DNA from: Acidimicrobiales bacterium
Lineage (GTDB): Bacteria; Actinomycetota; Acidimicrobiia; Acidimicrobiales; Aldehydirespiratoraceae
DNA length: 64,000 nucleotides
NCBI GenBank assembly: GCA_029246685.1
Contig: JAQWMR010000004.1
Coordinates: 84,841 to 148,840 of the forward strand
Reading direction: 5' to 3'
The translations under genes and the position numbers were made by a program. The notes beneath the pieces are model-generated. The model did not search any database, was not told the origin of the DNA, and saw only the letters and a list, made by a program, of their open reading frames with translations. Positions 31,396-44,468 of this stretch are shown piece after piece. How positions within the stretch are numbered: the first letter of the stretch is position 1; every line of letters begins with the position of its first letter.

Positions 31396-31755
31396 TCAGG
31401 AGAGCTCGAGCGTTGCGGTCGACAGCAGTCCGGACTCGGTGGAGGCGGTTGCTGTTCGCTTCCCGCCGAAGAGCCAGACCGAGACGGACGGGTCGGCCGC
31501 CGCGTTCTTCATCCACTGTGAGCCGGCCCGCACGGTGGAAACGGTCACCGTGTTGCCGACGCGTCCGGCGACAAGTGGTACCTGACGGAGCCGGCCGCTC
31601 GAGCGTCCGGTCGTCTCGAGAACCACGATGCCGAGACCGACCGGTAGCGGGTTGGCGATCCCGGCCTTCACCGCGGGCAGCACGACGCGGTTCAACGCCC
31701 GGAAGGCATCTCTGGTCGCCGTTCGGCGAAGTTCGCTGAGCTGGGGGAGTGCCAT
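31396..31755 (-). CDS. Nitroreductase-family deazaflavin (F420H2)-dependent oxidoreductase (DUF385/Ddn-like)
   Basis: TTGRSSGRLRQVPLV ... GSQWMKNAAADPSVSVW pattern; 119 aa. Confidence 0.6.
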   Translation of the reverse strand: MALPQLSELRRTATRDAFRALNRVVLPAVKAGIANPLPVGLGIVVLETTGRSSGRLRQVPLVAGRVGNTVTVSTVRAGSQWMKNAAADPSVSVWLFGGKRTATASTESGLLSTATLELS

Positions 31756-31802: not shown

Positions 31803-32048
31803 CTACTCGCGAGGGTCCTCGATCTCCACTGTGTTGAGCGCGGGGATATCGCCGGAGAGCATGTCGAGGGCGACGGTCTGCAGGAACGGCTTCGGCATCA
31901 CGCATTCCGCGCACTCAGCGGTGTCGAGCACCAGGCGAATCGAGATCGAGTCAGCGGTGGTGGCGACGAGTTCGACGCTGCCACCGTCGGCCTCGATGAG
32001 CTCGCGAACGGGAGCCAGAGCGGTCTCGGCGGTCGACGGGTCGATCAT
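31803..32048 (-). CDS. NifU-C-terminal-like (Nfu-type) small protein
   Basis: LIEADGGSVELV...LDTAECAEC (CxxC); 81 aa; 4-nt overlap with the upstream SDR stop. Confidence 0.6.
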   Translation of the reverse strand: MIDPSTAETALAPVRELIEADGGSVELVATTADSISIRLVLDTAECAECVMPKPFLQTVALDMLSGDIPALNTVEIEDPRE

Positions 32049-32875
32049 TGTGCGTTCGCTCCGGTCGGGGCTGACTTCAGGCCTTCGTCGTTGGCCGGTC
32101 GGCTGCGGGAGAGGAAGGCGCCCGCGTCGGTCAGGATGAACTGGCCGGTGATGCAGCGAGCGAGATCGCTGGTGAGAAAGGTGGCCAGTCGGGCCAGCTC
32201 GTCGTGCTCAACCTGGCGGCGGAGGGGAGTGGAGGCGGTGATGGCCGCGGCGCGCTCCTCGGTGAACGCCCACGCAACCGTCTCGGTCAGAGTGGTTCCC
32301 GGTGCCATCGCCAACACCCGGATGCCTTCTGGCCCGAGCTCGACCGCCATCGAGGTGATCAGATGGTTGATGGCGGCCTTCGCGGCGGCGTAGATCGAGT
32401 TGTACGGCGACGGGCGGGTGGTCTCGCCTGAGGTGACGAAGAGAATGACGCCCCCACCGGCAGAGCGCATGTGCTCGGCCTCGGCCCGTCCGCAGAGCGC
32501 AGCAAGCACGAGGTTCTGGTCGATGATGTCTCGCCAGTCGTCGCCGCGGTAGTCCACGAACGGCTTCACGCCTCGACCGGGCGGCAGCATCCCGATGTTG
32601 TTCACGGCGACGTCCAACCGGCCGAGCTGGGCGACCGCGGCGGCGACCATTGCGTCCACTGCATCGTCGTCACGGCAATCGGCGACCAGCGGGACGGCGG
32701 TGCCTCCCTCCGCTTCGATCTCGGCGACAACGGCTGCTGCCTTGTCCTCGCGGATGTCGTTCACGCCGATGGCCGCGCCCGCCCGCGCGAGCCAGAGAGC
32801 GACCTCACGGCCGATTCCCGCACCGCTCCCGGTCACGAGTGCTGCCTTTCCGGCGTGGTCGATCTCGATGGTCAT
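32045..32875 (-). CDS. SDR-family oxidoreductase
   Basis: VTGSGAGIG, NNIG, YAAAK; GGGAGG RBS inside the end of the upstream gene. Confidence 0.9.
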   Translation of the reverse strand: MTIEIDHAGKAALVTGSGAGIGREVALWLARAGAAIGVNDIREDKAAAVVAEIEAEGGTAVPLVADCRDDDAVDAMVAAAVAQLGRLDVAVNNIGMLPPGRGVKPFVDYRGDDWRDIIDQNLVLAALCGRAEAEHMRSAGGGVILFVTSGETTRPSPYNSIYAAAKAAINHLITSMAVELGPEGIRVLAMAPGTTLTETVAWAFTEERAAAITASTPLRRQVEHDELARLATFLTSDLARCITGQFILTDAGAFLSRSRPANDEGLKSAPTGANAQ

Positions 32876-32876
32876 G

Positions 32877-33395
32877 TCAGCCTCCCGTCAGCAGCGCGAG
32901 CGTCTCTTCGACCGCAGCGTCGGCCCACTCGCGAACCGTCGTTTCATCGGTGCCGCCGAGCGGGTGGTCGACCTGGACGATGCGCGCATCCGGACGGCCG
33001 AGCGACGCCGCGACCTGGTCGGTGAGCATGCGGAACTTCGTGGTGGTCAGAACGACGGTGGGCGTGCCGGCGGCTTCCAGCTGGACGAGGTCGTGGACAC
33101 TCCACGACGTGCAGCTACCTCAATCGGCCGAGCCGGTGAGAACGACGTCGACCTCCTTCTCGAGGCGGGCGATCACATCGTCCGGCGCGGCGAGAGCGGC
33201 GTTCTTCGTTTCGACCGGGCTGACCGTCGCGCCGGTGCGCTCGGCGATTCGCTCGGCAATTTGTGCGAGCAACACGCCTGCGTTGGGCTTTGTGTTGTCG
33301 AGGATGCCGATACGGGCACCGCTCATGACGGAGCGAGGGGCCGCGAGCGGTCCGGGTGCGTCGCCGATCTCTCCATCGGGTGTGTAGATGCGCAT
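32877..33395 (-). CDS. UGSC-motif protein; candidate selenoprotein with in-frame TGA (Sec) at 33122..33120
   Basis: The frame is open for 172 codons if TGA 33122..33120 is decoded: ...VVLTGSAD-U-GSCTSWSVHDLVQLEAAGTPTVVLTTT...VDHPLGGTDE.... A SECIS-like hairpin starts 11 nt downstream. Both gene ends are coupled to neighbours (TGAcATG at each end). Confidence 0.7.
33090..33108 (-). promoter_or_regulatory. SECIS-like recoding hairpin downstream of the in-frame TGA
   Basis: The mRNA reads UGA-GGUAGCUGCAC-GUCGUGGA-GUG-UCCACGAC: an 8-bp perfect stem with a G-containing apical loop (or 7 bp with an AGUGU loop). Confidence 0.55.
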
Positions 33396-33396
33396 G

Positions 33397-34440
33397 TCAG
33401 TGCTCCTCGATCGGGATCGTCACGCTCTTCGTCATGCCCCAGCTGGGCACGACACAACTGTGCTTGCCGGCGCCGCCGACCACCAGCACCTTGATGTTCT
33501 CGGGGTGCCCGGTCATCGGGACGGCGGCGTCGTCCGGCAATGCTCGCTGCCACGGTTCCCACGCGAGAAGGTTGAACGCGGCGCGCAGTTCACTGGCCGG
33601 CATGCGGGCCTTCTGGAACAGATAGGAAGCGACATCGCTTCGGGTCCAGCCGGCATCGGCGCAGGCGGCGGCGTGCTCCGGGCACAGCGCGACGAAGTAC
33701 TCGCCCTGCGCGATCGGTGCGTTGTTCTGGCCGAGCGAGGTCATCGCGGACGCGAGCTTGTCGAGGATCGCGGCTGGGTCGGCCGACTCCATGTCGTGTG
33801 CGTTGTGCGGCGCCTCGCCGCAATGAACCGTGACGGCGGACGGGGAATCGAGGCCGACGGAGCGGGCGTAGCCACCCCACGGCGACTCTGCCATGTTCTC
33901 GGCGACGCAGAACGAGTACTTCGCGGGGCCGCCCTGCGTTGACGCATCGCCTGGGCCCGGAATCGCACCGGCAATGTGAAGCAGTATGAGACGAACGGCG
34001 CGACCGGTTGTCGCGTTGGCGCGGTTGCCGGGGCCGAACGCACCGAGTCCGCTGTTGAACCCCGCCCGCTCGGCGATCTCGCCGTGCACGATGAGCAGCG
34101 GTGCGACGGGATGGGTGGTGGCGTTGACGCCGCGGAGGTTCATCTCCGGAGCGGCGAGCGCGCGTACCGCGGCGATGAGGACCGGGAGCTGCGCCGGTGC
34201 GCAACCGGCGAGGACCGCGTTGACGGCGATCATCCGTCTCGTGGCTGCACCCGAGCGCGGGGGCAGGATCGCGACTACGTCATCCGGGTCACCGGGGGCG
34301 CCGGCGAGCATCGCGTCGACGCGCGCCTCGGTGGGGGCGACCATCGGAAGGCCGTCGCCCCAACCTCGAGCGGCGTAGGCGTCCATGATCGCGATCGGGT
34401 CGTCGTCGACGTCGGTGAACGTGGCGCTGTCTGCAGACAT
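33397..34440 (-). CDS. Conserved hypothetical protein (347 aa), first gene of the operon, coupled to the UGSC gene
   Basis: ATG 34440; GWGDGLPMVAPTEARVDAML motif; no family recognised; its stop lies 1 nt before the UGSC gene's ATG. The track ORF N-extension to 34764 overlaps the TetR gene and is rejected. Confidence 0.7.
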   Translation of the reverse strand: MSADSATFTDVDDDPIAIMDAYAARGWGDGLPMVAPTEARVDAMLAGAPGDPDDVVAILPPRSGAATRRMIAVNAVLAGCAPAQLPVLIAAVRALAAPEMNLRGVNATTHPVAPLLIVHGEIAERAGFNSGLGAFGPGNRANATTGRAVRLILLHIAGAIPGPGDASTQGGPAKYSFCVAENMAESPWGGYARSVGLDSPSAVTVHCGEAPHNAHDMESADPAAILDKLASAMTSLGQNNAPIAQGEYFVALCPEHAAACADAGWTRSDVASYLFQKARMPASELRAAFNLLAWEPWQRALPDDAAVPMTGHPENIKVLVVGGAGKHSCVVPSWGMTKSVTIPIEEH

Positions 34441-43029: not shown

Positions 43030-43776
43030 TCAGCTCGCCCAGACGTCGCTGCGCAGCAGTCGCGCCCACCGGTTCGACGGAAGGTCGGGCCGCAGCGAGG
43101 CGAGCCCGGTGCCGTATTTGCTGACCTTCGCCGGCCGGATGCGGTTGCGCCACAGCAGGCGGTCGACCTCGCTCGCGCGGTCAGTCGTCTTCGTCTCGAC
43201 GATTGCCGGCCGCAAGACCCGCTGCGCGCCGTTGACCGGAAGGCTGAACGCCACCTCGCGGTCGATCGTGAGTCAAGCGACGTCGCCGACCAACAGGGTG
43301 CTGCGGCCGAAGCGGGTCGTGAGCTTCTCGCCGAGGTCGCTGGACGCCACCTCCTCGCCGAGGATGCCGGCCACGATCTCGCGCTCATCGTCGCCGAAGC
43401 GGTGATCGTCGCCCTCGTACTCGAAGCGATGCTTCACGGTGATGCCGCGCCGGCTGCGCTGCTTCACCTCGAGCCAGTTTCGCCCGCTGTCCACGTAGCG
43501 CCGCGTCCGGATCTTGTGACGGAAGGGTCGGCGTCGTGCGGTGTCGAGGAAGCTCCGGAGCTCGGGGGAGTCGTAGTACATCGTGTCGTACGCGAACTCC
43601 CGACGACCGTCGATCTCCAGCGCTCGACACAGCGGGCCGACGGCTTCGAGCACGCTCGGCAGCACCTCGAGGGGCACCAGGTACTTCCGGTCGCGCCGCG
43701 TCGTGAGCTCCGCTCGGTCGTTCAGCTCATCGAGGCTGACCGGCGCGAGCTGCTCGACCGCGGCGAGCGCAGTCAC
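43030..43776 (-). pseudogene. VTC-domain (polyphosphate-polymerase-domain) gene with an in-frame TGA
   Basis: GTG 43776 overlaps the DUF4956 stop (GTGA); RRDRKYLVP...; ...STLLVGDVA then TGA 43275..43273; LTIDREV...IVETKT...AKVSKYG continues in the same frame to 43030. As I recall the family consensus, Arg occupies the stop position (R-[LV]-T-[IF]-D). Confidence 0.75.
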
Positions 43777-44468
43777 GACTTCTTCGACCGCCGGAGAGAC
43801 AAACGGCGCTTTTGGCGGGCGGGAACGGTAGGCGTGGCGAGGCGACACCGGACCTCGGCGACCGTCGTGTCGTTGACGAGATCGGTGCGGCGGATCTTCA
43901 CCGAGTGGATTGACGCGCCGAGGATCTCCTCGGCTCGCGCAATCAGGACGTCCTCGTGAGGAATCGCCTGGTCGATCGTGAGCACCTGGCGCCGGTAGCC
44001 GTTGAACATGCGGGGGTGATCGAAGATGTACATGAGGGCGACCAGCGCCACCGTCAACGCTGGTCCCAACCAGTCGTCGGCGATCTCGAGACCGCCGAGC
44101 AGCCCGAGTGACAATGCCTTGAAGTAGTAGGCGATCTCGGACTGATCGAGCTCCGCGGACCGGAGGCGAATGATGGAGAGAACGCCGAACAGGCCGAGGC
44201 CGAGCCCGAAGCTGACCTGGACACTGGACAGCGCCTGGGAAACGGCCAGGACGCCAGCGTTGAGCGCAATGTAGGCAAGCGCGAGATCGCGTCGTCGATA
44301 GCGGGGGAAGTAGATGAACACGACCAGAACGAAGATCGCGATGCCATCGACGATGAACGGAATGGAACTGTGCACGAAACTCTTTTTGGGCTGCCACCAG
44401 CGCGAACCGAGGTTGAACGGTGGCTGAACACCGCTCTGGGTTAGGAACGCGGACCTGTCAGACAGCAC
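43773..44468 (-). CDS. DUF4956-domain membrane protein (usual VTC partner)
   Basis: FGLGLGLFGVLSIIRLRSAELDQSEIAYYF core. Start is uncertain (GTG 44468 or GTG 44375; no in-frame ATG). Confidence 0.75.
   Translation of the reverse strand: MLSDRSAFLTQSGVQPPFNLGSRWWQPKKSFVHSSIPFIVDGIAIFVLVVFIYFPRYRRRDLALAYIALNAGVLAVSQALSSVQVSFGLGLGLFGVLSIIRLRSAELDQSEIAYYFKALSLGLLGGLEIADDWLGPALTVALVALMYIFDHPRMFNGYRRQVLTIDQAIPHEDVLIARAEEILGASIHSVKIRRTDLVNDTTVAEVRCRLATPTVPARQKRRLSLRRSKKS

Follow-up and report, generated by a model that had tools for sequence, protein, structure and literature searches.

A probable UGSC-family selenoprotein gene, annotated as two hypothetical fragments, on an Acidimicrobiales-like contig

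UGSC is one of the selenoprotein families of the GOS survey by Zhang and Gladyshev; it is abundant in aquatic metagenomes, and 255 selenocysteine (Sec) forms were counted there against 21 cysteine (Cys) forms (PMC2398784). The family has been counted in 26 sequenced organisms (PMC5029168), and it is entered in current reviews with the NCBIfam model NF041046 (PMC13188914; PMC9312934). The stretch of DNA analyzed here (64 kb of a 281.9-kb contig, referred to as the window) harbors a gene that shares with the UGSC family a full-length profile match, the U-G-S-C column, the Sec/Cys pair, and a SECIS element directly downstream. Nothing essential was found to differ; the gene lies on an Acidimicrobiales-like MAG contig and has been annotated as fragments, and its partner domain is encoded by a separate upstream gene and not as a fusion. 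As UGSC has been published repeatedly as a selenoprotein family, the window gene is a mis-annotated further member of an already known family, with a biology that is ordinary for that family. UGSC-motif selenoproteins are also present in Geodermatophilaceae, which likewise belong to the Actinomycetota, and according to work cited in PMC5330540, Sec is encoded there by UAG and the tRNA-Sec carries a CUA anticodon, whereas the window gene uses the canonical UGA. Bacterial SECIS elements are modeled as hairpins with a loop of 3–9 nt, a stem of 4–16 bp, a distance of 16–37 nt from the UGA, and a ΔG ≤ −7.5, with a G at loop position 1 or 2 according to N1-G-[G/U]-N-N2 (PMC13188914).

The ORF list of the window contains only a 91-aa piece of the UGSC gene (33395..33120, minus strand), ending at the TGA 33122..33120. 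The minus-strand reading is ATG (33395) ... GGC TCG GCC GAT TGA GGT AGC TGC ACG TCG TGG AGT GTC CAC GAC ..., and readthrough gives ...LTGSAD-TGA-GSCTSWSVHD... with 80 further open codons. The first-pass annotation of this DNA had extended the frame in this way to a second TGA (32879..32877) and a product of 172 aa, which proved to be correct to the base (Table 1). The end of the upstream 347-aa gene and the UGSC start adjoin as TGAcATG at 33399..33393, and the true stop of UGSC lies between a GGGAGG (32886..32881) and the next ATG (32875), again as TGAcATG; the upstream coupling and the elements flanking the second TGA had both been described earlier and are present in the sequence. In each public record examined, the gene is called as a 91-aa and a 50-aa fragment, both "hypothetical," so that the earlier warning that ORF callers would truncate it is literally true.

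Table 1. Coordinates of the UGSC gene, its decoding elements, and the neighboring genes in the window
Feature	Position	Strand	Remarks
UGSC selenoprotein gene (probable), complete	32877..33395	minus	ATG 33395; Sec codon 92; true stop TGA 32879..32877; 172 residues
In-frame TGA, probable selenocysteine, U of U-G-S-C	33120..33122	minus	Aligned with the invariant Cys in homologues
SECIS hairpin	33090..33108	minus	5' arm 33108..33101 GUCGUGGA; loop 33100..33098 GUG; 3' arm 33097..33090 UCCACGAC
347-aa partner gene	33397..34440	minus	Translationally coupled to UGSC (TGAcATG); without known family
SDR-family oxidoreductase gene	32045..32875	minus	Directly after UGSC (TGAcATG, RBS GGGAGG 32886..32881); Pfam adh_short, adh_short_C2
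NifU-like 81-aa gene, C-A-E-C motif	31803..32048	minus	Two genes downstream of UGSC; syntenic in L252

The composition of the gene does not change at the internal TGA. GC3 is 0.79 before the TGA and 0.85 after it, with the neighboring genes alike, and the GC content by codon position 3' of the TGA (0.71/0.53/0.85) is the same as that of the neighboring genes. TGA is the normal stop in the window, where it terminates 28 of the 41 long coding frames; hence, the genetic code is standard, without reassignment. The 91-aa product is recorded on 13 contigs from independent samples, and the internal TGA was common to all 10 of the independent contigs examined, which rules out an assembly error; eight of these 10 were identical to the window at each base covered. 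The contig L007 (626..1061, coverage 1.8x) equals the window over the first 276 nt of the gene, after which 19 of 160 nt differ, which points to assembly chimerism or to strain recombination. The contig L010 carries ACG to AAG at gene position 287 (T96K), at an invariant residue next to the SECIS stem, and this change is probably an error.

Profile searches were carried out with the 172-aa product in which U was replaced by C. Pfam PF24696 (UGSC) matched with 161 bits (cutoff 25) over model positions 2–171 of 172, across the TGA, and the NCBIfam equivalog NF041046 matched with 138 bits (cutoff 125) over positions 2–147 of 147, which bears out the UGSC membership that the motif had suggested earlier. 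A homologue search among 5.8 billion proteins returned 185 matches, the best 120 of which were compared. These best 120 of 185 were ~175 aa or longer with 45–68% identity, and the named sources among them were Acidimicrobiia or Actinobacteria MAGs. A Cys occupied the TGA column in 120/120 of the full-length homologues listed, and the surrounding motif A-D-C-G-S-C-T was invariant.

The occurrence of the same TGA in other organisms was evaluated by scanning species-representative genomes with the pattern ACN GGN NNN GCN GAY TGA GGN WSN TGY AC (T-G-x-A-D-TGA-G-S-C-T). The scan gave at least 119 loci, compared with ~4 expected by chance in our own estimate; 116 of the at least 119 were UGSC genes and three were chance matches. 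At the TGA column, for which an alignment with homologues had been proposed as a check, Cys stands in the 120 proteins listed and TGA in these 116 loci. Conserved protein sequence continued after the TGA in the 116 listed UGSC loci for ~80 codons, or for ~435 codons in fused forms. Titles were seen for 80 loci, comprising ~45 from Acidimicrobiia or other Actinomycetota, 14 from Rokubacteria/Methylomirabilota, 10 from Myxococcota/Deltaproteobacteria, and a few from Bacillaceae, Gammaproteobacteria, Burkholderiales, Spirochaetes, and Acidobacteriota. The closest orthologue (L252) is a locus with 82% DNA identity in the closed 4.48-Mb Acidimicrobiales genome GCA_033344915.1, and it retains both the TGA and the hairpin. 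Between the window and L252, 25 synonymous and 15 non-synonymous codon changes were found before the TGA and 22 and 11, respectively, after it, and the region across the TGA and the hairpin showed 0–2 differences per 30 nt against an average of ~5 per 30 nt. These codon changes, along with the conserved continuation in the 116 listed loci, show purifying selection on the frame 3' of the UGA.

The hairpin that the first-pass annotation had placed 11 nt past the TGA was found exactly as described, with the arms and the loop given in Table 1. It is a perfect 8-bp stem with a ΔG of −11.1 kcal/mol, separated from the UGA by 11 nt, with 19 nt between the UGA and the loop. All four values fall within the bacterial SECIS (bSECIS) model outlined above, namely, the loop (A-GUG-U, 3 nt), the stem (8 bp), the distance (19 nt), and the energy (−11.1 kcal/mol). 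Similar to the bSECISearch/E. coli fdhF-type consensus, the element lies within the ORF, at 19 nt (16–37 allowed), with an 8-bp upper stem, N1-G-U-N-N2, and a ΔG < −7.5; it differs from the fdhF type in having another sequence, a very small loop, and a lower helix that is not conserved in the family. The E. coli fdhF SECIS has a bulged U, whereas the window hairpin is without one. A longer, two-helix SECIS was considered as a family feature and rejected, the lower helix being 58% paired and no better than shuffles. Rfam, searched at gathering thresholds over the whole window, gave no match, and it holds no curated bacterial SECIS family for the hairpin.

The RNA fold that had been suggested as a check, over 66 nt, had a z-score of −0.38 and was unremarkable alone. 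Perfect 8-bp hairpins numbered 26 in the GC-rich window vs. ~15 in shuffles, and a scan of the window for TGA codons with a G-loop hairpin 16–37 nt behind them listed 11 combinations, many of them sharing one hairpin. By itself, the hairpin is within chance, and its significance comes from the cross-genome comparison. The hairpin was nearly invariant in nucleotides across the 111 Sec forms whose flanks were complete, with the 8-bp stem and a GUN loop in essentially all of them. The consensus 8-bp stem was 99.3% paired among 100 distinct Sec-form sequences, and the changes observed in it were one compensatory G-C to A-U pair (six sequences) and one G-C to G-U (five sequences). Classical covariation support is thin, as no variation at all is seen in six of the eight stem pairs.

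A control for this invariance was obtained from the Cys forms by a metagenome scan with the identical pattern carrying TGY in place of TGA. Among the Cys forms, 83 encoded C-G-S-C-T-A-Y-S and 18 encoded the Sec-form residues S-W-S. The Ser codon in the loop was AGU in 111/111 Sec forms and AGC in 18/18 S-W-S Cys forms (Fisher p = 2e-22), the latter being a set of only 18 sequences from metagenomes whose relatedness to one another is not known. In the same comparison, the third base of the codon following the loop Ser was C in 111/111 Sec forms vs. 5/18 S-W-S Cys forms (p = 4e-14). The Ser located two codons past the TGA, outside the hairpin, was encoded by six different codons among the Sec forms, so the codon choice is otherwise free. 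The mean hairpin ΔG was −12.6 kcal/mol in the Sec forms, −9.2 kcal/mol in the Cys forms with S-W, and −4.3 kcal/mol in those with A-Y. The SECIS is conserved at synonymous sites in the Sec forms only, and the comparison with the Cys forms is decisive. The argument for the SECIS is synonymous-site invariance measured against the Cys-form control, and not covariation, and on this ground the earlier assignment of the hairpin as a SECIS, already in line with the four published values, holds. The full 8-bp stem was still formed in 5 of the 18 S-W-S Cys forms (L134–L228), with GC and not GU in the loop, and the stem was lost in the A-Y forms; in the S-W-S Cys forms, it may be a fossil SECIS left by a Sec-to-Cys conversion. 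The single synonymous site (AGU vs. AGC) provides a simple Sec/Cys classifier and a clean mutational test.

The structure of the gene, its place in the UGSC family, and its linkage to the partner are direct observations, and so is the fact that the TGA, the SECIS, and the frame beyond them have been conserved. The internal TGA can be assigned with high confidence as a Sec codon of a genuine UGSC-family selenoprotein gene of 172 residues. With the TGA encoding Sec, the two annotated pieces become one 172-residue protein. SelB carrying Sec-tRNA(Sec) would bind the hairpin that starts 11 nt past the UGA 33122..33120, and with SelB at the hairpin, Sec would be inserted instead of termination and translation would proceed to the stop at 32879..32877. 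The fixation of the SECIS at synonymous sites implies a SelB that reads it, and from this we infer SelB-dependent decoding in the organism of the window. Neither the 64-kb window nor the 21-kb orthologous locus yielded selA, selB, selD, or a tRNA-Sec, and ARAGORN detected no tRNA in the window or in L252–L254. When the window and all retrieved loci were searched for SelA, SelB, and SelD by motif and by tblastn, matches were obtained in three loci only. These belong to three proteobacterial MAGs, in which selA and selB (L040, 56..2601), selB (L087, 454..2292), and selD (L051, 1173..2069) lie <8 kb from Sec-form UGSC genes, and this neighborhood lends the Sec assignment indirect support.

A full-length product could also arise if the UGA were read through without selenium, either by a near-cognate Trp or Cys tRNA or with Cys inserted via the Sec machinery, which would give a non-selenoprotein, and the Cys forms of the family clearly function. 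This is very unlikely, however, as a conserved SelB-type hairpin with a G-U loop would be difficult to account for if SelB were lacking, the window relies mainly on TGA for termination, and several surveys have listed UGSC among the selenoprotein families.

It is extremely unlikely that the TGA is a true stop resulting from a nonsense mutation, in which case the locus would be a UGSC pseudogene or would yield a shortened product of 91 aa, its 3' part being a dead remnant. The 91-aa ORF in the output of the gene callers, the Sec machinery not being seen in the window, and the presence in the window of another TGA-interrupted gene (a VTC-domain gene, with Arg at this position in a relative) would be in agreement with such a mutation. 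However, the TGA is shared by at least 116 other genome loci and by the 82%-identical orthologue, and the 3' part of the orthologue differs by 22 synonymous and 11 non-synonymous changes in a frame that has not decayed. Furthermore, GC3 remains at 0.85 past the TGA, and the Sec-specific hairpin is conserved. The VTC-domain gene (43030..44397, minus strand) has its in-frame TGA at 43275..43273, with a GC3 of 0.94 on one side of it and 0.93 on the other, and its readthrough product matches Pfam PF09359 over positions 2–234 of 235. In L252, the VTC gene is intact (248 aa), with Arg (CGC) at the position of the TGA and no Cys nearby. The interruption resembles a nonsense mutation/pseudogene or an error in the contig rather than a Sec site, and with a non-Sec in-frame TGA in this gene, disrupted genes do occur on the contig. 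A scan of TGA-interrupted coding frames revealed no further selenoprotein gene in the window; of its five candidates, three were adjacent same-frame genes, one was the VTC nonsense site, and one was UGSC itself.

That the locus comprises two genes, one for a 91-aa N-terminal protein and one for an independently initiated C-terminal protein of 50–80 aa, is hardly credible: the public 91-aa and 50-aa calls do each have a partial match to the UGSC Pfam model, but the 50-aa call begins at an internal Met and leaves 30 conserved codons unassigned, including the invariant G-S-C-T-S-W-S, the Cys homologues are single chains of ~175 aa, the AF2 model of a Cys homologue places the motif in the middle of a single compact domain, and neither the hairpin nor the synonymous-site constraint would have a role.

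For the structure of the UGSC selenoprotein, an AF2 model was made of P0001, a Cys homologue 68% identical to the window protein (pLDDT 90.9). The model consists of five successive β-α units (flavodoxin/Rossmann-like), and the best matches in a PDB fold search were flavodoxin-like domains with a TM of ~0.5. This flavodoxin-like prediction differs from the "likely Trx-like fold" given in PMC2398784. The thioredoxin fold (a mixed sheet, β-α-β-α-β-β-α) was rejected for the model with its five β-α units, the comparison being one with a prediction only, and it was absent among the 50 best PDB fold matches. A PDB sequence search with UGSC gave no meaningful match. The (U/C)-G-S-C motif is located in the model at the N-terminus of helix 93–108, right behind strand 84–88. 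In this respect, UGSC resembles the CxxC/UxxC thioredoxin-like oxidoreductases, in which the redox pair is also two residues apart at a helix N-terminus following a β-strand; it is unlike them in that no thioredoxin-fold protein is among the 50 best matches and the sequence relatives of UGSC are without a solved structure. Owing to this thioredoxin-like placement of the redox pair, Sec92 and Cys95 are proposed to cycle between the selenol/thiol and selenenylsulfide states.

The 347-aa partner encoded upstream of UGSC is present in 100/115 Sec-form and 80/101 Cys-form loci, and in the Sec-form loci it was found immediately upstream in 66 and downstream or fused in 29. In the mechanical ORF list, the partner has a length of 455 aa, and the real start gives 347 aa. 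It has >3400 homologues; those named among the 120 listed are all "hypothetical protein," none of the 120 has a Pfam domain, and the listed ones are 70–90% identical and mostly from Acidimicrobiia-type MAGs. Searches against Pfam and NCBIfam gave no match for the partner, a PDB sequence search gave none that was meaningful, and a PDB fold search with its AF2 model (pLDDT 83.9) gave no credible match. Fumarate hydratase and cyanuric acid hydrolase came up as partner folds and were rejected as unreliable (TM <0.3). Many Cys, His, Gly, and Trp positions of the partner protein are invariant, some of them in the motifs GWGDGLP, NATTHP, and GGxGKHS.

Homologues of the SDR oxidoreductase encoded directly after UGSC occur in 48/115 Sec-form and 36/101 Cys-form loci (~40%), and the gene is syntenic in L001 and L252. 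The NifU-like gene scored 24.9 bits against Pfam PF01106, just below the cutoff of 27. In L057, a NifU-like domain is fused to the C-terminus of UGSC, and L036 is apparently a similar fusion, judged by a tail with CxxC, the profile scan having covered L057 alone; PF01106 and PF24696 also occur together in one protein, P0116. In Rokubacteria, Bacillaceae, and Gammaproteobacteria, the long UGSC forms (~550 aa) seem to combine UGSC and the 347-aa partner in one chain, an arrangement that is probably the "Unknown_1" fusion of PMC2398784. At least three UGSC architectures were seen, namely, UGSC alone (~175 aa), with the partner (~550 aa; L012, L014, L040, L087, and others), and with the NifU-like CxxC domain (~270 aa; L057, L036, and others); in the window, UGSC, the partner, and the NifU-like protein are encoded by separate co-oriented genes. 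A 119-aa deazaflavin (F420)-dependent nitroreductase-like gene (31396..31755, minus strand) is syntenic with the UGSC cluster in L252 (12669..13028). It adjoins UGSC in just one other locus and is probably a lineage-specific context.

As the partner shows high conservation, occurs fused to UGSC in some lineages, and has no relative in Pfam, NCBIfam, or the PDB, it is tentatively proposed that UGSC and the 347-aa protein together make up an enzyme that has not been described so far, with UGSC as its redox subunit and, in some lineages, with the NifU-like CxxC protein and the SDR oxidoreductase as further members. UGSC would be the redox-active small subunit in a complex with the protein encoded upstream, and the NifU-like CxxC protein and the SDR would be added in some lineages. 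We infer the redox couple U92/C95 from the placement of the motif, and a physical complex of UGSC with the 347-aa protein from linkage and fusion.

For annotation, the split "hypothetical" fragments should be replaced by one 172-residue selenoprotein, and the gene is a sign that the Acidimicrobiales-like lineage probably uses selenocysteine. With UGSC on record from the Sargasso Sea and GOS surveys onward, the biological gain is incremental; it lies in the near-invariance of the SECIS across phyla, the use of AGU vs. AGC to tell the two forms apart, a fold predicted to be other than thioredoxin-like, and the uncharacterized partner. The tightly linked or fused 347-aa protein is the obvious lead to the function of the UGSC family, and if the proposed enzyme is real, UGSC and its partner would constitute a new class of selenoenzyme.
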